Made by a program: the position numbers and the translations under genes. From Escherichia phage LotteLoewe_Bas71: a stretch of DNA of 42,712 bases. The notes below the pieces were generated by a model. That model saw only the letters and a program-made list of their open reading frames with translations. It did not search any database and was not told where the DNA came from. Positions within the stretch are counted from its first letter, which is position 1, and each line of letters opens with the position of its first letter. The stretch lies in the sequence record PQ850615.1. The stretch is one strand, 5' to 3'. Positions 5,234 through 16,980 of this stretch are shown piece by piece.

Positions 5234-5442
5234 TTGACTTTTCACTAAAAATATGATAAGCTCCACCTGAGCTTGTGAAGTATGAACAAGCGACCGCGGC
5301 GCGGGCAGGTAACGGAGCGGGACGTAAGTCCTGAGTGTAGTTACGCTGACGCGTTCGGAAGGGCCATACTCTATTGCTTGTGTAAAAAGTAACAGGTTTA
5401 CTGAGATTACGCCGTTTCTATGTTTAAATGATAAGGACTAGC

Positions 5443-7868: not shown

Positions 7869-8057
7869 GTGGTAACTGGCGGTCTGGAGCCGTATTCCTA
7901 CCAGTGGTACAAAGATAACAACGCCATCGACGGAGCCACCGCAGCTACCTATGCGAAGGCGTCCACTACTACCGCAGATTCAGGCACGTATAAAGTGGTT
8001 GTTCACGATGTGTATGGTAATATTATCTCCAGCAGCACCGTAGCAACTGTGTCTTAA
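7869..8057 (+). CDS. Ig-like domain ORF lacking initiation signals (possible recoded C-terminal extension of the capsid protein)
   Basis: Ig-like signature (YSYQWYKDNNAIDGATAATY...GTYKVVVHDVYGN); GTG start without SD; frame is open from 7770, overlapping the capsid gene 3' end in the -1 frame. Confidence 0.4.
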   Translation: MVTGGLEPYSYQWYKDNNAIDGATAATYAKASTTTADSGTYKVVVHDVYGNIISSSTVATVS

Positions 8058-8093
8058 TACAACGGCCCTTCGGGGCCGTAATAAGGAAAGGTC

Positions 8094-8273
8094 ATGGCAG
8101 ATAATTACGTAATCCGCGAAAAGTATACCCACGTTGATATCGTTGACGGACAGGTGATGCCTGTTCGCGGTGTGGTAGAAGCGGATGAACTGGTTGCAAC
8201 CCAACCAGACAATGAAGAAGCGCACAACAACGGCGGTGGTACTAAGCGTCGTCGCCGTAAGTCAGAGGAATAA
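8094..8273 (+). CDS. hypothetical 59-aa protein
   Basis: ATG with AAGGAAAGG SD; basic C-terminus (KRRRRK); below the ORF-track length cutoff. Confidence 0.35.
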   Translation: MADNYVIREKYTHVDIVDGQVMPVRGVVEADELVATQPDNEEAHNNGGGTKRRRRKSEE

Positions 8274-8276
8274 TTT

Positions 8277-8789
8277 ATGCCGCTAATCGTGGAAACTGGG
8301 GTGATCGTCCCAAATGCCGACAGTTACATTAGTCTGGCTGACGCCCGCGCGTTAGCGGCTAATTATGGCCTTGAGCTGCCGGAAGACGATACCGCAGCAG
8401 AGGTGGCCTTACGCAACGGTGCTACTTATGTAGGGCTTGCAGAACCGCAGATGTGCGGTCGTCGAGTATCCGCCGAACAGTCTCTTGCATACCCCCGCAC
8501 CGGCGTTACGTTAAACGGGTTCCCGGTGGTCAACAACGCCATTCCGAAACAGGTGATTCTTGCGCAGGTAATCGCTGCCGCTACATATGGCGAGGGCACC
8601 GAAGTCCGGGCTAACTCAGACGGTCGCGCCGTGCAGACTGAGCGTGTCGAGGGTGCAGTAACAGTGACCTACTTCAACAATGGCAACAGTGGCGCTACGA
8701 CCGCGATTACCGCTGCTGACGACGCTTTACGCCCGTTATTGTGTGGCGGTCTTAACAATGGTTTCTCGTTTAATGTGTACCGGGGTTAA
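8277..8789 (+). CDS. head-tail connector / adaptor protein (gp6-like)
   Basis: N-terminal motif (ADSYISLADARALAA) typical of head-tail connector proteins; position after capsid genes. Confidence 0.5.
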   Translation: MPLIVETGVIVPNADSYISLADARALAANYGLELPEDDTAAEVALRNGATYVGLAEPQMCGRRVSAEQSLAYPRTGVTLNGFPVVNNAIPKQVILAQVIAAATYGEGTEVRANSDGRAVQTERVEGAVTVTYFNNGNSGATTAITAADDALRPLLCGGLNNGFSFNVYRG

Positions 8790-10372: not shown

Positions 10373-10785
10373 TGGGCTACTTTGAGGACTTAACAAAAGC
10401 GTTCGATGTTCCGCTGGTAGCCTTCGGAACCGCCAACGGCATCAAGGTTGCGCTTGAAAACATCGACGCGCCGACGTCAACCGATACGCCGTATCTGGCG
10501 AGTTACATGCTACTGGCAGATACCGAGCAGGCGGATTTGTTCTTCACTGAGCAACGCTCTGGTATTTATCAGGTAGACATTAACTACGCATCGGTGAAAG
10601 GTAGCGCGCCAATCAATAAAATGGCAGACTTACTTAACACGGCGTTTAAAGCAGGTAAGTCATTTTCGCGTAACGACATCTGCGCCGAGGTTCAATCGGT
10701 TAGCCTGGGGCCGCTGATTGTAGAAAACGGATGGGCCAAACGACCATTGTCAATTAACTTTATTGCATTCACCAAGAGGCTGTGA
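10372..10785 (+). CDS. putative tail terminator / tail completion protein
   Basis: 137 aa ORF directly upstream of the major tail protein candidate. Confidence 0.35.
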   Translation: MGYFEDLTKAFDVPLVAFGTANGIKVALENIDAPTSTDTPYLASYMLLADTEQADLFFTEQRSGIYQVDINYASVKGSAPINKMADLLNTAFKAGKSFSRNDICAEVQSVSLGPLIVENGWAKRPLSINFIAFTKRL

Positions 10786-11954
10786 ATATGGCTACAACTC
10801 CTTTTAAGGGCGCGAATACCGCGCAATTCTATGTGGCGGAAACTACCCCTGGCGTAACACCGACTAACCCGGTATGGTCGCCGTTGCGTAACACGGGCGG
10901 CGTTCCCGCTGTAACCCGCGATGCACTGACTTCCAACGAACTGGACGGCAGCCGTGAAACTACATCCATCCGAACCGGTAACAAGCAGGTTAGCGGGGAG
11001 TATGCCATCGAACTTAGCTCTCGTAGCCAGGATGATTTCCTTGCGGGAGCGATGACTTCTACGTGGCAAGCTGGGGTAGAGATTACTGGCGCCGAAATTA
11101 CGGTCGCCCCAGCAGGTAAAACATTCACCCGCGCTGCCGGTAGCTTCATTACTGACGGTGTAGAAGTTGGCGACCTTATTGCGTTCACCGACTTAACCGG
11201 CGACAACGCAAAACCGTTTATCGTGACCGCGGTTTCCGCTCTGGTAGTTACGGGCGCAGGTATTCAGCACACGCTGACAGCAGAGACAGTAACCACTGAC
11301 GCAAAAACTGGCGACAAGCTGGAAACCGGTAACGCGTGTAAGACGTTCTCCATCCTGACGTGGTTCAAGGGCCAGTGTGGTAACCCGGACGCGTACATGC
11401 TGACCAAAGGTGTGGAAATCTCTGGCTTTACCGTAGAGCAGGCGGTTAACGCCATGGTCACCGGCAGCTTCCCGTTCATCGGCCTGAGTCAGGAGATTCT
11501 TACCGCGCCGCCGTCCGGCTCTGATTTCTCTCAGGTTACGTTCACCGATGAGCCGTTCTCGTCGGTAGATGTGTCGGTGTTCGATGGCTCCACGCCGTTG
11601 CGTTGCGATACTCTCACCATCACCAACGACAACGGAGCTTCCGCGCAGTTCGAACTCGGTAACAGTAGCGTGGCGTTCGTCGAACGTGGACGCGCAGCTA
11701 ACACATTCTCTATCTCTGGCAAGCTGTACGACATGGCGATGATTCAGAAGTTTATCAACGAGCAGCAGGTAGAGATTAACTCTATTCTGGCAGGGGTAAA
11801 CGGGGCTATGTCTTTCAGTTTGAAACGTGCAGAGCTTACGGCGGTTACACCTGAGATTGGTGGGCCTGAGTCAATCACTCAGTCCATTGAAGGCCAGGCT
11901 ACCGGCAATCAGTACCAGTCGTCTATCGTAATTCAACGTATCACCTACGCATAA
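10782..11954 (+). CDS. major tail protein
   Basis: 390 aa, T/G/S-rich; last structural ORF before the chaperone/tape-measure block; followed by a strong terminator. Confidence 0.5.
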   Translation: MNMATTPFKGANTAQFYVAETTPGVTPTNPVWSPLRNTGGVPAVTRDALTSNELDGSRETTSIRTGNKQVSGEYAIELSSRSQDDFLAGAMTSTWQAGVEITGAEITVAPAGKTFTRAAGSFITDGVEVGDLIAFTDLTGDNAKPFIVTAVSALVVTGAGIQHTLTAETVTTDAKTGDKLETGNACKTFSILTWFKGQCGNPDAYMLTKGVEISGFTVEQAVNAMVTGSFPFIGLSQEILTAPPSGSDFSQVTFTDEPFSSVDVSVFDGSTPLRCDTLTITNDNGASAQFELGNSSVAFVERGRAANTFSISGKLYDMAMIQKFINEQQVEINSILAGVNGAMSFSLKRAELTAVTPEIGGPESITQSIEGQATGNQYQSSIVIQRITYA

Positions 11955-11958
11955 AACT

Positions 11959-11984
11959 AAGGCCCCTTTCGGGGCCTTTTTCTC
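11959..11984. terminator. bidirectional intrinsic terminator
   Basis: AAGGCCCC-TTTC-GGGGCCTT hairpin followed by TTTTCT; between major tail gene and leftward cassette. Confidence 0.6.
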
Positions 11985-12213
11985 ACTCATCAATATTACT
12001 TCGATACTCCCGTAACTTCTCCAGACTTTCAATTGCTTCTGCTAAGTCGGTTCCGGTGTCCTTGTGTCCACGTAAACCCATGCACAATAGCTTCTTCAAT
12101 GCGTGCTGTAACGCCGGGTCGCGGATGTCGAAAGCGCGGAGCACATCATAAACGTCTACTGTCATAGTGCTGCCGTGAGTATTTGTCATTGTGCGGTTGT
12201 ATTTTGAAGTCAT
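11983..12213 (-). CDS. hypothetical 76-aa protein (last gene of leftward cassette)
   Basis: ATGA-coupled to the upstream metallophosphoesterase gene; followed by terminator 11959..11984. Confidence 0.45.
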   Translation of the reverse strand: MTSKYNRTMTNTHGSTMTVDVYDVLRAFDIRDPALQHALKKLLCMGLRGHKDTGTDLAEAIESLEKLREYRSNIDE

Positions 12214-13340
12214 CCCAGCATCTCCGGTGAAATAGTTAAACGTGCGACCTCGCCATATTCGGCGCTATAAGTAATTACGTTTGCGCTACGCCCAGACATC
12301 CATCCGCCGCGCGAGGCGTAGGCGTCTTTCGCCGCTAAGGTGCGGTGTTGCTCAACAATCATGTTACGGCTTTCTACAATCTTCTGGTGGTGCAGGTGGC
12401 CTACGTGGGCGTAGCTGTAAACACTCTCACCGAACGCTTTGCGGAACTTGGCAATCATAACCGGTTCGATAGCGTCGAATCGTGCTTTATGCCCGTGATG
12501 GAAGAACAGCGTCGTTTTGCCGTGTTGCACCATCTTGTAAACATCCGGCGACGTATCAACAATCACTCGGCTGTCGTTTGAGTATAAAACCGTGAACATT
12601 TCGGCAAGCCATACGGAGCCAACAGGGTCGTGGTTACCTTGAACGATTAAAAGTTTTACTGTGTGATGCTTAACCAGCGCCATATCAACAACACGGCGGA
12701 CCATACGAATCATGTAACGTACCAGTTTCTGATAGCGAGTATCCGCATCTAATACATGGCGCGACTCGGGGGTAACGGCATCAAGACTATCGAAGTGTGC
12801 GAAATCACCCAGCAGGTTAATAACTCCTGTTCCTGCATCCGGTGCTTTCTGAAACGCCGCGTCGAACCAACGAGAGAACAGGTCTTCTGCAATCTTCATG
12901 TCCCAGTCGTCGCCGCTCTCATCGGCCCATGCCAGCATACCGAGATGGAAATCAGATACAGTGTAAAGATTGAGTAGCTTGTCGTCACGTTTGGCGCGCG
13001 CCGCTTTAACAGGCGCAACGGGCGTAATCTCTGACTTCATGCCCTCTATTACGGCTTTCATCAATTCAACCTGACGTTCGGCGTCGGTATCAGTCTTAAC
13101 CCATTGCAACTTAGTGTTGCCGAACTCGTCCACAAGTGACGACGTTCCTTTAATCTTGTAGCCGTCTGGCACAAGGTGGCTAACGTCGCGCCCGTGGCCC
13201 ACGCCTTTCTTAGCCAGCTTCGCTTTACGGATACGAATAACTCGGTCTGAGATGCCGTATTTACGGGCGATGTCTACATTCTTCATCCCGGCGTTCAATT
13301 CTTCCTGTAACTGTTCGTCGGTTATTTTCTTCTGGGCCAT
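12210..13340 (-). CDS. HTH-domain + calcineurin-like metallophosphoesterase
   Basis: Complete metallophosphatase motif series DFHLG / GDFAHFD / GNHD / HHGH / GHLHH in order; N-terminal HTH-like segment (NVDIARKYGISDRVIRIRK); GAGGAAG SD. Confidence 0.65.
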   Translation of the reverse strand: MAQKKITDEQLQEELNAGMKNVDIARKYGISDRVIRIRKAKLAKKGVGHGRDVSHLVPDGYKIKGTSSLVDEFGNTKLQWVKTDTDAERQVELMKAVIEGMKSEITPVAPVKAARAKRDDKLLNLYTVSDFHLGMLAWADESGDDWDMKIAEDLFSRWFDAAFQKAPDAGTGVINLLGDFAHFDSLDAVTPESRHVLDADTRYQKLVRYMIRMVRRVVDMALVKHHTVKLLIVQGNHDPVGSVWLAEMFTVLYSNDSRVIVDTSPDVYKMVQHGKTTLFFHHGHKARFDAIEPVMIAKFRKAFGESVYSYAHVGHLHHQKIVESRNMIVEQHRTLAAKDAYASRGGWMSGRSANVITYSAEYGEVARLTISPEMLG

Positions 13341-13405
13341 GCTTACTTCCTCGTGTTTAGGATTTGTCCTATTTAACCACAGTGGATTCCTTTAAATAAA
13401 GGCGA

Positions 13406-13732
13406 CTATTTACTTTCTGCGCCTATCGCCCACCCTGTCATTACCATTTGCAGACGGGTGGCTGTCAGTAGGCTATAGAAAGCATCTCCGTTTTTCTCTA
13501 CCGAACGTATCACTGTGTAGGTTACGGCCTGCGGGGGTAGGCCCGATTTACCAACCTCCACGGCGGCCTCACACTCGCGAACTGTAGAGTCCTTGAACGC
13601 CTTTACAATAGTAGGGTCGGCTTTATCAAGCACACCAGAAGTCATAAGAACAGATTCACTAAATACCTGTTCGCACGGGGCTCCAAAAGTAGCAAAAGAC
13701 ATAAAACCCAGAGCTAGTACTAATTTACGCAT
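13406..13732 (-). CDS. secreted (periplasmic) 108-aa protein
   Basis: N-terminal signal peptide (MRKLVLALGFMSFATFGA), two cysteines; first gene after promoter 13761..13789. Confidence 0.5.
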   Translation of the reverse strand: MRKLVLALGFMSFATFGAPCEQVFSESVLMTSGVLDKADPTIVKAFKDSTVRECEAAVEVGKSGLPPQAVTYTVIRSVEKNGDAFYSLLTATRLQMVMTGWAIGAESK

Positions 13733-13749: not shown

Positions 13750-13778
13750 GTTACATGTGAATAGTACCCTATTATATT
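13750..13778 (+). promoter_or_regulatory. candidate rightward promoter overlapping the leftward one (divergent pair)
   Basis: GTTACA (13750..13755) - N17 - TATATT (13773..13778) on the plus strand within the same palindromic element; upstream of tail chaperone operon. Confidence 0.35.
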
Positions 13779-13896: not shown

Positions 13897-14313
13897 ATGA
13901 AACTTTCTGATTTCTATTTTGCCGACCGCCACGCCGCCGGTACTAAAATGCCTATCCTTCTGCCCAGTGGTAAAGATTCCGGTGAATGGTTGCAGGTCAT
14001 CGGCCCCGATTGTGACGCTGGTGTTCGTGCGGGCCGTGCCTACACAACGGCAATTCGACGCCTTACGGAAGAACTTGCGCCATTAGATAAAGAGTGCGAG
14101 GCGCTGAATAACTGGGCGCGCTATAATGATGAGAAGGGCTGGCGGGTGATGGACCTGAACAAGCAGCTTGCCGTGGAAATCGTCACCGGTTGGTCATTCG
14201 ACGAACCATTCAGCAAAGAGGCGCTTGCTAACCTGTTCGACCAGTACAGTGGGTTGGCAGAGGCCGTAGTTAAGCATCACACCGATAGCCGTGAGAAACT
14301 CTCGGAAAAGTAA
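13897..14313 (+). CDS. tail assembly chaperone (G-like)
   Basis: Located immediately upstream of the tape measure gene; followed by a -1 frame ORF reachable by frameshift. Confidence 0.55.
   Translation: MKLSDFYFADRHAAGTKMPILLPSGKDSGEWLQVIGPDCDAGVRAGRAYTTAIRRLTEELAPLDKECEALNNWARYNDEKGWRVMDLNKQLAVEIVTGWSFDEPFSKEALANLFDQYSGLAEAVVKHHTDSREKLSEK
14305..14313 (+). other. candidate programmed -1 ribosomal frameshift site (GAAAAGTAA)
   Basis: Lys codon AAG immediately before stop TAA, with AAA available in the -1 frame; -1 frame is open into the tape measure start. Confidence 0.45.
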
Positions 14314-14675
14314 AAGCGCTGTATGAATTTGCGCAATGGTGCTTTGTCGACCGCCACAAACGTAAGCAATTCGACGACATCGCGGCGGGCCACCAGGCGG
14401 CTTTGATTGCAATGGGCGTGATTAAAGAACCGCAGATGAAAGAAGCGACGGGGCCAGAATGCCCCGTTTCTCTTATCGACGTGTTCGAGAAATACCGTGC
14501 CATTAAATTCCTACAGCGCGAAACAGATGATACTATCGTTATAATCCCGCGCGATGCGCTCAAATGGCAAGATTTGGTAGCGTTTCGTGATGTCGCCGGT
14601 TACGGCATAAGTTTGTTCGAAGCCGAGGTTATCATGGGCTTAGACGGAATATTTGAGGGCAGAGAAGATGGCTGA
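14307..14675 (+). CDS. tail assembly chaperone -1 frameshift extension (GT-like product)
   Basis: -1 frame is open from 14295 to 14675 and overlaps the tape measure start; lysine codon AAG sits directly before stop TAA with A AAA AG context (14305..14313). Confidence 0.45.
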   Translation, partial: KVKALYEFAQWCFVDRHKRKQFDDIAAGHQAALIAMGVIKEPQMKEATGPECPVSLIDVFEKYRAIKFLQRETDDTIVIIPRDALKWQDLVAFRDVAGYGISLFEAEVIMGLDGIFEGREDG

Positions 14676-16980
14676 TACGGCTTCCCTAATCGCCAGAGTA
14701 AAAACAGAAGGTGCTGACGTAGCTGCCAAACAGCTTGACGCTATGGCGTCGTCTGCAGACCGCGCTGATACCGCGGTAAACAAGCTGACTCCGGACGTTA
14801 ATAAAGTAAACTCCGCTACGTCTAAAGCGGCTTCTGACGGTTTCGCTAAATTCCGTAACGCCGCCGGGCAGGTAGGCTTCCAGGTGCAGGACATGGTCGT
14901 CCAGTTGCAGTCCGGCACGTCTGCATTCGTAGCAATCGGGCAACAAGGCTCTCAGCTTGCGGGTGCTTTCGGCCCTGGTGGCGCGGTGCTTGGGGCCGTA
15001 ATTGCTCTTGCGTCAGCAATCGGTGGTGTCCTGTATAAATCGTTAACCGAAGCAGAAGGCAGTTCAAAAGACCTCGAAGCCGCGCAGAAACAGTTAAAAG
15101 ATACTTTCCAGCAAACGGCATCTGGCTCTCTCGAGCTGACAGACGGCCTTATCCAGCTTACCCAAATCAGCAGAGAGGCGGCAGAGACTCAGCTTGCTCT
15201 GGCTAAGGCCAACGCGGACCTTATCGCGCAGCAAACAGCTAAAGCCGTTCGTGAGGACGCAGAATCGTGGGAAACATGGAAAGCATCCACGGCATCGGCG
15301 ATTAGCCAGTACGATGCACTGACCTCTAAGGGTGCTGATGTAGGTGACACGTTAGAAAAACTCGGTGGTACTTACGAGGGTAACATCGTAGGCGTCAACA
15401 TGCTGGCGCAGAATATCGCGGAGCTTAGCAGTAAGTTCGGAGTTAACCGTGACCAGGCGCTGGAGATGATAGCGGCGCAGAGTGCGTTTAACAAAGAGCC
15501 AACCGCCGAGAATGCCCGTCGCATCGCCGATGTGTTTACCGACTGGCTCGGTAACACAAAACAGTTGAACCCGGAACTTATCCGCCTGACGGACAACGCC
15601 AACAAGAACGCCACGGCACTGGAGAACGCGGAGAAGTCAGCAAACGCGGCGGCAGAGGCCCAAAAGAATCTTGGTCGCAACGTCAACTCAACCACGCAGA
15701 GATTCCAGGAACAGAACGAAGCTATCGTCAAAGACCAGCAAATCGCCATCTTAAGCGACCGTGAGCGTATCCGGGCGCAAGCTGAACTTGATAAACAGGC
15801 GTTCGCTAAACGTGAAGCCGTCACCAAAGAACAGATAGCCGCGTATAATGCGGCCCGCGACGCGGAAGCGCAGCAAGACATCGCCCGCATTGACAAGACC
15901 GAGAAAGAGAAGGCCGACCGCGAGGCTAAATCGAACGAGGAACGTCTGGCGGCACAAGCCAAACGCGAAGAAACAGCGGCACAACGTCAGAAAAAAGCGG
16001 CGGAAGATTTCCTGGCTACTGTCGACCGCACAACCGGAGACGAAATTTCACGTATCACAGCGGCAGAAGAACAGAAACTGGCGAAACTTGAAGAGTTCAA
16101 CCGCGCCGGAACGATAAGCCAGCAGCAGTACGAAAACGCCAAAACTCAAATTATGCTCACCGCCGAGCAGGCCAGACAGGAAGAACTGGATAAGAAAAGA
16201 AAAGAGCAGCAGGAAAAGCAGCAGAAAGGCGACGACTTCATGGCCCAGATTATGGGTCAGAACGCCGCTGAGCTTGAGCTTCTCGACATCCAGGAACAGC
16301 AGAAACTGTCGGTAGCAGATAAGTACCGCGAGCAGGGTTTGATTAGTGAGAAGCAGTACCAGGCGGCGCTTAACGCCATCAATGAGCAGTATGCTACGAA
16401 GCGTGCCGACGCAACGGCAACGGCCTTCGGTAACATGGCTTCAAACATCGGTTCGGCTTTGGGCGAGGCTTCTGGCGCGTATAAGGCATTCGCTATCGTA
16501 CAGGCCACTATCGCCACGTACACCGCGGCTATCGAGGCGTACAAGTCCACAGCGGCTATCCCTGTAGTTGGTCCGTTCCTGGCTCCTGTAGCTGCCGCCG
16601 CTGCCGTTGGGGCGGGTATGGCGCAGATTTCCGCTATCAGGTCCGCACGTGAACAGGGCGGACAGTTATCAGCCGGGCAGGCTTCCACCATCGCTGAACG
16701 TGGTAAACCAGAAGTTATCATGCCCGCTGGTGCGTCACGTGTACGCACCGCACAGCAGATGAAAGAGATTATGGGACAAAACGGGTCTTCTTCCGGCCCA
16801 TCTAATGTTACCATTGTAAATAATACATCGAGTCAGATTGGCAACGTATCCACCGAGCAGGATGATGAAGGCCGTCTGCGTATCATCATAGAAGAGCAAG
16901 TTGCTGCATCTTTGCAGAACAGCAACAGTAAGATTAGCAAGGCCCGCAAGGCCACAAGAAATGCGCCGGGGTTTAAATAA
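14653..16980 (+). CDS. tail tape measure protein
   Basis: 775 aa, long A/Q/E/K-rich predicted coiled coil with a glycine/alanine-rich hydrophobic segment; position after chaperone. Confidence 0.75.
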   Translation: MRAEKMADTASLIARVKTEGADVAAKQLDAMASSADRADTAVNKLTPDVNKVNSATSKAASDGFAKFRNAAGQVGFQVQDMVVQLQSGTSAFVAIGQQGSQLAGAFGPGGAVLGAVIALASAIGGVLYKSLTEAEGSSKDLEAAQKQLKDTFQQTASGSLELTDGLIQLTQISREAAETQLALAKANADLIAQQTAKAVREDAESWETWKASTASAISQYDALTSKGADVGDTLEKLGGTYEGNIVGVNMLAQNIAELSSKFGVNRDQALEMIAAQSAFNKEPTAENARRIADVFTDWLGNTKQLNPELIRLTDNANKNATALENAEKSANAAAEAQKNLGRNVNSTTQRFQEQNEAIVKDQQIAILSDRERIRAQAELDKQAFAKREAVTKEQIAAYNAARDAEAQQDIARIDKTEKEKADREAKSNEERLAAQAKREETAAQRQKKAAEDFLATVDRTTGDEISRITAAEEQKLAKLEEFNRAGTISQQQYENAKTQIMLTAEQARQEELDKKRKEQQEKQQKGDDFMAQIMGQNAAELELLDIQEQQKLSVADKYREQGLISEKQYQAALNAINEQYATKRADATATAFGNMASNIGSALGEASGAYKAFAIVQATIATYTAAIEAYKSTAAIPVVGPFLAPVAAAAAVGAGMAQISAIRSAREQGGQLSAGQASTIAERGKPEVIMPAGASRVRTAQQMKEIMGQNGSSSGPSNVTIVNNTSSQIGNVSTEQDDEGRLRIIIEEQVAASLQNSNSKISKARKATRNAPGFK

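Follow-up and report, generated by a model that had tools for sequence, protein, structure and literature searches.

In phage lambda, the tail assembly chaperones gpG and gpGT share a start codon and an N-terminal part, and gpGT carries in addition an extension read in the -1 frame after slippage on the tandem heptamer G_GGA_AAG, which lies at some distance ahead of the stop that ends the short open reading frame (ORF); the genes of the pair immediately precede that of the tape measure protein (Xu, Hendrix and Duda 2004; reviewed in PMC5009743). Of the tetramers in Escherichia coli, A_AAG is the most prone to shifting; alone it works near background level, and when the IS3 pseudoknot follows a spacer of 5 nucleotides (nt) it reaches 5.6% (PMC4066793). 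Natural sites of the form NNA_AAG, at which only the lysine transfer RNA (tRNA-Lys) re-pairs well, occur in Bacillus subtilis cdd (A_CGA_AAG) and IS1222 (G_CGA_AAG) (PMC5009743). Here we describe a locus in a stretch of 42,712 nt from Escherichia phage LotteLoewe_Bas71 (sequence record PQ850615.1), hereafter called the window, which very probably encodes a chaperone pair of the lambda G/GT type, made by a -1 frameshift on A_AAG followed by a stop-containing spacer and a helix.

The short ORF, analogous to lambda gpG, spans 13897..14313 in the zero frame (138 residues; the pair and its signal all lie on the plus strand). It matches the Pfam family PF08748 Phage_TAC_4 (E = 1e-8) and positions 1-138 of PHROG 15027 (E = 1e-65). 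Its 3' end reads CTC TCG GAA AAG TAA, in which AAG occupies 14308-14310 and TAA 14311-14313. A TGA at 14292-14294 closes the -1 frame, which then stays open from 14295 to TGA at 14673-14675 (127 codons). A T-like extension of 121 residues would run from GTA at 14310 to this TGA (14310..14675), so that the predicted fusion, join(13897..14310,14310..14675), has 138 + 121 = 259 residues. The -1 frame product matches PF23812 Phage_TAC_18 (E = 9.5e-18) and positions 139-259 of PHROG 15027 (E = 3e-61); given that this profile of 259 positions matches both halves end to end, the family was built on fusion proteins. As for lambda gpG/gpGT, the predicted proteins have a common start and N-terminal part, similar sizes and matches to chaperone families; the second ORF, read in the -1 frame, overlaps the first at its end and has no conserved start of its own; and the pair directly precedes the tape measure gene. 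A sequence search turned up no relatives of solved structure. An initial annotation of the window, made from the sequence alone, had proposed a short ORF ending in GAA AAG TAA, a -1 frame open from 14295 through 14675 into the tape measure start, and a fusion of about 259 residues. The sequence confirms this layout, and the computed length agrees with that of a deposited protein of identical sequence.

That protein belongs to phage K1H: the predicted product (...KLSEK-VKALYEF...) is identical to the deposited K1H fusion protein ADA82316.1 / YP_009168853.1, and QNO11587.1 of phage fFiEco02 is the predicted fusion with two substitutions. A joined coding sequence (CDS) is annotated at the locus in the K1H RefSeq and fFiEco02 records, and the frameshift is already known by annotation from the K1H GenBank record. 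An alternative junction, ...LSGKVKAL..., was rejected, being absent from a collection of 15 billion proteins in which ...LSEKVKAL... is present.

The -1 frame is conserved as protein up to the slip site. A tblastn search with this frame returned 493 phage records, 461 of them with identity below 60%, and the distant matches listed (50-59% identity) align from query residue 2-4, that is, from GGA-AAA at 14304-14309, where the slip site lies. Judged by sequence comparison, the level of matching in the -1 frame to Pfam, PHROG and the tblastn records is far beyond chance. We compared 8 diverged annotated relatives and 80 IMG/VR loci, about 90 sequences in all, which clustered by the T part into 27 lineages at no more than 90% amino acid identity, with L054/L056 in addition. 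Past the junction these relatives share the peptide GKVxALYxFAxWxFVDRxKxxKFDxIxxGHxAAL, among the best-conserved stretches of the protein, and its first part, GKVxALYxFAxW, occurs in all lineages. Past the stop, column entropies at the three codon positions of the -1 frame are 0.59, 0.68 and 1.27 bits; therefore, the substitutions follow a coding pattern in this frame.

These data bear on the possibility that the downstream ORF is made separately from an internal start (CTG 14319, TTG 14403 or ATG 14412), with no fusion. Most public records do list two separate genes, gene callers find an ORF of 87 residues on 241 contigs, and position 1 of the PF23812 model aligns with residue 37 of the -1 frame translation, which is TTG 14403, the first ATG, GTG or TTG of this frame in the window. 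However, the 33 residues ahead of TTG 14403 rank with the best conserved and show the -1 frame coding substitution pattern, and no start codon is conserved in this frame among the lineages: five of the 27 lack any ATG, GTG or TTG closer than 140 nt to the stop, and Met at 14412 is replaced by Ile in several. Moreover, no Shine-Dalgarno sequence precedes 14403 or 14412 in the window, and separate initiation would leave the conservation of A_AAG at synonymous sites unexplained. We thus regard an internal start without fusion as highly improbable. The tryptic peptide ALYEFAQWCFVDR is encoded in the -1 frame upstream of every start codon of that frame. Chaperones of this kind are absent from virions.

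Constraint at the nucleotide level coincides with the proposed signal. In a scan of 85 conserved degenerate codon columns in both ORFs, synonymous variation is missing at three places only: the slip site, the codons GCG-CUG starting 5 nt past AAG, and the final T-part codons, shared with the beginning of the tape measure gene. The slip site A_AAG (14307..14310, in the heptamer-like context G_GAA_AAG at 14304-14310, with AAA at 14307-14309) is invariant in 26/26 aligned lineage representatives and is also kept in L023 and L054/L056, which were analysed separately; followed by UAA or UAG, it ends the short ORF in 27 of 28 lineages. The last Lys codon is AAG in all 26 representatives, though AAA outnumbers AAG genome-wide (441 versus 333). 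The codon before AAG may be GAA, GCA, UCA or AAA, which stand for four amino acids and always end in A, and the base ahead of that codon varies as well (G, C or A). The canonical X_XXY_YYZ heptamer is not formed: the window has G_GAA_AAG, and others have G_GCA_AAG, C_GCA_AAG, A_GCA_AAG or G_UCA_AAG. Since the preceding codon and base vary and the preceding tRNA is often unable to re-pair, the pattern speaks against a slip on a tandem heptamer and in favour of tRNA-Lys re-pairing by itself. The -1 frame of L041 and L050 opens just 10 nt before the stop, and the shift is therefore confined to GCA_AAG. Only L054/L056 (IMG/VR contigs, about locus 1193-1410) carry the canonical A_AAA_AAG, followed by UAG. 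The initial annotation had ascribed a G/GT-like fusion to slippage of tRNA-Lys from AAG to AAA, and had noted that the heptamer is not canonical. The latter is borne out by the lineages with GCA or TCA before AAG, where re-pairing of the preceding tRNA is not possible, and the former is supported comparatively by conservation up to the slip site, by the invariant A_AAG with UAR and by the 10-nt overlaps.

Two other routes into the -1 frame, transcriptional slippage on the A run and reinitiation after termination at TAA, might be suggested by the four A residues ahead of G and by the adjacency of stop and new frame. However, the A run counts only 3-4 nt (GCAAAG in many lineages), which is too short for polymerase slippage, most lineages have no start codon near the stop from which to reinitiate, and Lys-Val is conserved across the junction. 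Both routes appear hardly credible.

A spacer of five nt, UAAAA (14311..14315), separates the slip site from the helix described below, and its first three bases are the zero-frame stop TAA (14311-14313). The stop directly adjoins AAG in 89/90 sequences, L023 being the exception. The locus thus displays the arrangement of the shifty stop class (Weiss et al. 1987), a slip-prone codon directly before the zero-frame stop, here AAG TAA. This raises the alternative that slow termination alone, with tRNA-Lys bound to AAG in the P site while the A site, at UAA, is empty, causes the shift, and that the helix is irrelevant to frameshifting. Besides the adjacency itself, the choice of stop codon speaks for this explanation: the lineage representatives use UAG in 18 cases, UAA in 8 and UGA in none, though UGA would preserve Val (GUG) in the -1 frame and the annotated genes of the related phage Bas70 end in TAA 38, TGA 36 and TAG 9 times (TGA 43%, TAG 11%). 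Selection for a stop read only by release factor 1 (RF1) may account for the absence of UGA. UAG is read solely by RF1. Several observations disagree with a stop acting alone. L023 (IMGVR_UViG_2162886012_000023, about locus 1195-1215) reads GCA AAG UUA UAG, with the stop displaced by one codon, and keeps the 5-nt spacing between AAG and helix as well as a helix of 13 base pairs (bp); this natural test argues against a strict need for the adjacent stop. In addition, the synonymous constraint reaches at least 10 nt past the stop, and, as judged from the spacing, AAG in the P site would put the helix start at about +9, already inside the ribosome. Tetramers without a stimulator also work near background in E. 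coli (PMC4066793). Slow termination as the sole cause is accordingly unlikely in our view, though by no means far-fetched. The initial annotation had classified the site as a shifty stop; the adjacency of AAG and TAA stands, but the stop may not be the main stimulator, given that a helix starts 5 nt past AAG and that the stop is displaced in L023. An upstream stimulator resembling a Shine-Dalgarno sequence was also considered and rejected: nothing is conserved at a dnaX-like distance, and GGA lies too near AAG and is missing where the codon is GCA or TCA.

Downstream of the spacer there is a conserved long-range helix. Its 5' arm GCGCUGUAUGAAUUUG (14316..14331) contains the invariant synonymous sites GCG and CUG, and it pairs with the 3' arm UAAAUUCCUACAGCGC (14504..14519) at 15/16 positions, with a single mismatch of U14324 against C14511; it is supported by pairing, by covariation and by its presence in the minimum-energy fold (P ~0.99). 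Together, the arms close a predicted structured RNA domain of 204 nt (14316..14519, from the fold of 14314-14521). When each lineage was searched for the complement of its own GCGYUG, a Watson-Crick or G-U partner was found in every one at a fixed offset, +203 in 17 and +129 in 9. Two representatives have GCGUUG, and each is matched by CAACGC. The pairing extends to 8-16 bp across lineages, and the apparent exceptions L022, L032, L035, L023, L054/56 and L030 also have the helix. We divided the sequences into group A (47 distinct sequences, gapless alignment A3), with the 3' arm at +203 in conserved Phe-Ile-Gln-Arg codons, and group B (28 distinct sequences, alignment A4), with the 3' arm at +129 in a linker without peptide conservation, in which CARCGC is nevertheless fixed and covaries with the 5' arm. 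The cells of the helix are paired at 88.6% in group A and 85% in group B, compared with 21-50% in both when the partner is slid. In group B, 5 of 11 pairs show changes on both sides, and one of the pairs is CG in 16 sequences and UA in 12, never broken. Five sequences of group A carry CG in place of UA at one of the pairs. The Arg codon of the 3' arm is CGC in 19/23 lineages, versus roughly a quarter at other Arg columns. The helix of L054/L056 carries two double compensatory changes, CGCUGCAUAAAUU pairing with AAUUUAUGCAGCG.

Folding calculations agree with the alignments. RNAalifold run de novo on group A predicts the long-range helix and nothing else, and an exhaustive scan of column pairs finds it as the sole conserved helix in group A and one more, of 6 pairs, in group B. 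With ViennaRNA, the core helix is in the minimum-energy fold in 24/25 lineages with a pair probability of ~0.99; with the folded segment extended to 360 nt past the stop it is retained in 12/13, and with 120 nt upstream added as well in 10/13, at a median pair probability of 0.97. In the window, 14314-14521 (208 nt) has a folding energy of -79.8 kcal/mol; dinucleotide shuffles give z = -4.44, none of 200 being as good, and the stem continues as an irregular rod of ~35 bp. Within 110 nt past the stop, RNAalifold finds essentially no local hairpin or pseudoknot (-0.28 kcal/mol). The first 110 nt of the window's segment alone fold worse than shuffles (z = +1.78), as expected if their pairing partners lie in the second half. 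Rfam gives no match in 14200-14700, even with E up to 1. A G+C-rich, terminator-like hairpin of 8 bp, GACGGGGCCAGAAUGCCCCGUU (14447-14468), falls within the -1 ORF, where its sequence corresponds to the conserved Gly-Pro-Glu-Cys-Pro motif, and makes up one of the branches of the structured domain; it occurs in many lineages, not all. The conserved helix just past the slip site appears not to have been described previously.

The frameshift could be real and the helix still serve another role, for instance to stabilise the mRNA, to direct its processing by a double-strand-specific RNase or to pace translation; alternatively, the helix could be a by-product of two conserved peptide motifs. In favour of this, both arms of group A encode conserved peptides, the stem in the window continues as an irregular rod, and a loop this large is in general unusual for a frameshift stimulator. 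Such a role or origin is hard to reconcile, however, with the 3' arm of group B, which covaries outside any conserved peptide, with synonymous sites frozen in the arms, and with the two double compensatory changes of L054, which alter amino acids. The 5' arm also begins exactly 5 nt past AAG in all lineages, L023 included. A helix unconnected with the shift is therefore quite unlikely, in our judgement.

Several points weigh against the proposed signal. In group A, changes on both sides are seen in just 3 of 16 pairs; both arms lie in conserved peptides (ALYEF and KFIQR), and many pairs never vary. In L081 the helix is predicted at P = 0.02. The loop, at ~170-190 nt, is unusually large for a stimulator in bacteria, and the helix may form too late on an mRNA under translation. 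No experimental study of chaperone frameshifting in Kagunavirus or Jerseyvirus was found in the literature searched, nor any report of the two products being made in a fixed proportion and required to build the tail. The genome announcement of one relative denies a canonical slippery sequence and keeps two separate genes (PMC6776780).

From the features above, we propose a putative model for the expression of the pair. Most ribosomes would read 13897..14313 and stop at TAA, yielding the 138-residue protein. A minority would slip one base back on A_AAG (14307-14310), where tRNA-Lys would re-pair from AAG to AAA. Afterwards, GUA would be read and translation would proceed in the -1 frame to 14675, resulting in the 259-residue fusion from a single shared start codon. 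The signal would consist of the tetramer A_AAG, the 5-nt spacer holding the zero-frame stop and the helix closing a domain of ~200 nt, with no tandem heptamer. As the spacing suggests, occupation of the P site by GAA and of the A site by AAG would bring the helix start to about +12, where stimulators are usually found. The stop in the spacer may contribute by leaving the A site empty after translocation. The sequence data show the arrangement of the frames, the conserved protein, the constrained signal and the conserved, covarying helix, while the occurrence and efficiency of the shift, its stimulation by the helix and the contribution of the stop through slowed termination are what we infer; the stop-codon route and the helix route yield the same protein, and the product cannot tell them apart.

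This model is reminiscent of several known systems, each with its own differences. Unlike lambda, with its tandem heptamer, the locus conserves A_AAG alone, the stop adjoins the slip site, a conserved helix follows, and the tube gene is parted from the pair by three reverse-strand genes. It shares with the IS3-type signal the tetramer A_AAG, the tRNA-Lys logic of E. coli and the 5-nt spacer before a stable predicted structure, which here is conserved and covarying. The two differ in that a predicted long-range closing helix with a loop of ~110-190 nt takes the place of the compact IS3 pseudoknot, in that the zero-frame stop lies inside the spacer, and in that the gene encodes a phage chaperone rather than a transposase. 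By analogy, the signal looks more like an IS3-type signal with the stop inside its spacer than like a pure shifty stop. A frameshift stimulator that needs far-downstream pairing is also found in luteoviruses, for example barley yellow dwarf virus; this is a eukaryotic RNA virus, however, with pairing over kilobase-scale distance and a heptamer site. The cdd slip site lies close to the gene end. The -1 slip on NNA_AAG is common to cdd, IS1222 and, as proposed, our locus, whereas the preceding codon and the stimulators are different, and the cdd event is described as incidental in contrast to a signal conserved across a phage subfamily. In phage SPP1, the gp17.1* event is reportedly a +1 shift in the tube protein itself, as opposed to the -1 shift in a chaperone proposed here. 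As cited in PMC8785237, this SPP1 'shifty stop' (Olia and Cingolani 2008) is likewise recoding of a phage tail gene at the ORF end, next to the stop. Burkholderia phage KL1 gp18/gp19 is also a predicted -1 frameshift of a tail chaperone with the slip site immediately before the stop, but KL1 has the canonical heptamer GGGAAAC and then TGA (PMC3483164).

More distant chaperone relatives (~25-30% identity), Serbin, Xoo-sp2 and VBv52, have much longer overlaps, of 115-439 nt, and their stop is not immediately preceded by A_AAG; the Guernseyvirinae-type clade is thus the one to which the signal is specific. From their sequences, the slip sites of these three phages appear to lie elsewhere. Serbin has CGA_AAG within the overlap. 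In Xanthomonas phage Xoo-sp2 (L094) and Variovorax phage VBv52 (L095), the annotated short ORF has a low-complexity Ser/Pro/Thr tail, SSASQPSPSTSSDST. This tail is an out-of-frame reading of the conserved -1 peptide RVERLAAFAEHEF..., and the slip site is therefore probably well upstream of the stop.

As to the surroundings of the locus, 901 bases around it are 99.9% identical to Escherichia phage Bas70, and the region is 95-99% identical to ~30 other Kagunavirus (Guernseyvirinae) phages, K1H among them at 95%. By these sequence identities, the phage of the window is a Kagunavirus-type (Guernseyvirinae) siphophage of E. coli. Gene coordinates equal those of Bas70 up to ~7.8 kb, beyond which they differ by 482 nt (window 8277 = Bas70 8759); the window therefore seems to lack part of the Bas70 region 7878-8755, which holds a Hoc-like decoration gene and small ORFs. 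The tail tube gene (10782..11954, Pfam Phage_tube_2) lies upstream of the chaperone pair, not adjacent to it. The intervening reverse-strand genes, at 11983-13732, include one for a 376-residue metallophosphoesterase/DNA repair exonuclease; because of them, the chaperone and tape measure genes need their own promoter. The divergent intergenic region upstream of the chaperone gene measures 164 nt and contains a candidate promoter-like site on the plus strand (13750..13778; GTTACA, 17-nt spacer, TATATT), picked out by consensus scan alone, and a divergent candidate promoter at 13761-13734. Downstream, the tape measure protein gene (14668..16980, plus strand) begins with an ATG that overlaps the end of the -1 frame ORF (ATGGCTGA). 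The final codons of that ORF, GAT GGC TGA (14665-14675), show no synonymous variation and overlap the tape measure start ATGGCTGA, and a Shine-Dalgarno-like GAGGG stands at 14655-14659, ahead of the ATG; the invariant codons over the start, together with GAGGG, suggest translational coupling. Elsewhere in the window, an annotated ORF of 36 codons (5282-5392) ends in UGU AAA AAG UAA, a canonical A_AAA_AAG with stop. This second A_AAA_AAG_TAA (5384-5392) was considered as a frameshift site and judged probably meaningless, its -1 extension being just ~13 codons.

Annotation of the locus is inconsistent over ~500 related phage genomes: some records give a joined CDS, many give two 'hypothetical proteins' and one gives a CTG start, and one paper denies a slippery sequence. 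In Bas70 the -1 ORF is a separate gene, Bas70_0027 (window 14319-14675), starting from CTG 14319, the sole CTG start among the 83 CDS of that phage; other records start the ORF at TTG, ATG or GTG at varying places or omit it. Among the database families, phrog_4557 begins at ALYEF and PHROG 15027 spans the whole fusion; together with the PF23812 boundary, they echo the differing start annotations of the -1 ORF. The proteome paper on Serratia phage Eta does not mention a frameshift. The comparative evidence settles the junction (...EK|V...), and the records could be harmonised.

In summary, this study points to a chaperone frameshift that is in itself ordinary, of the well-known lambda G/GT class, and to a signal that would be less so. 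It is reasonably likely that Guernseyvirinae-type phages, several hundred genomes, use an undescribed bipartite signal, in which A_AAG and a stop within a fixed 5-nt spacer act with a long-range helix closing 110-200 nt; the 3' arm would have moved in evolution, from +203 in conserved Gln-Arg codons to +129 in a variable linker or the reverse, against a fixed 5' arm and fixed spacing. The helix implies that short reporter constructs would miss the stimulator: the segment 14290..14330 proposed for a reporter in the initial annotation leaves out the 3' arm at 14504-14519. If the signal is as proposed, these phages would provide, for viruses of bacteria, a case of a frameshift stimulator that relies on pairing at a distance, and a clean natural system for how the tetramer, the stop in the spacer and the distantly paired stem together set the chaperone ratio, a question that the two positions of the 3' arm and the natural compensatory mutants make tractable.

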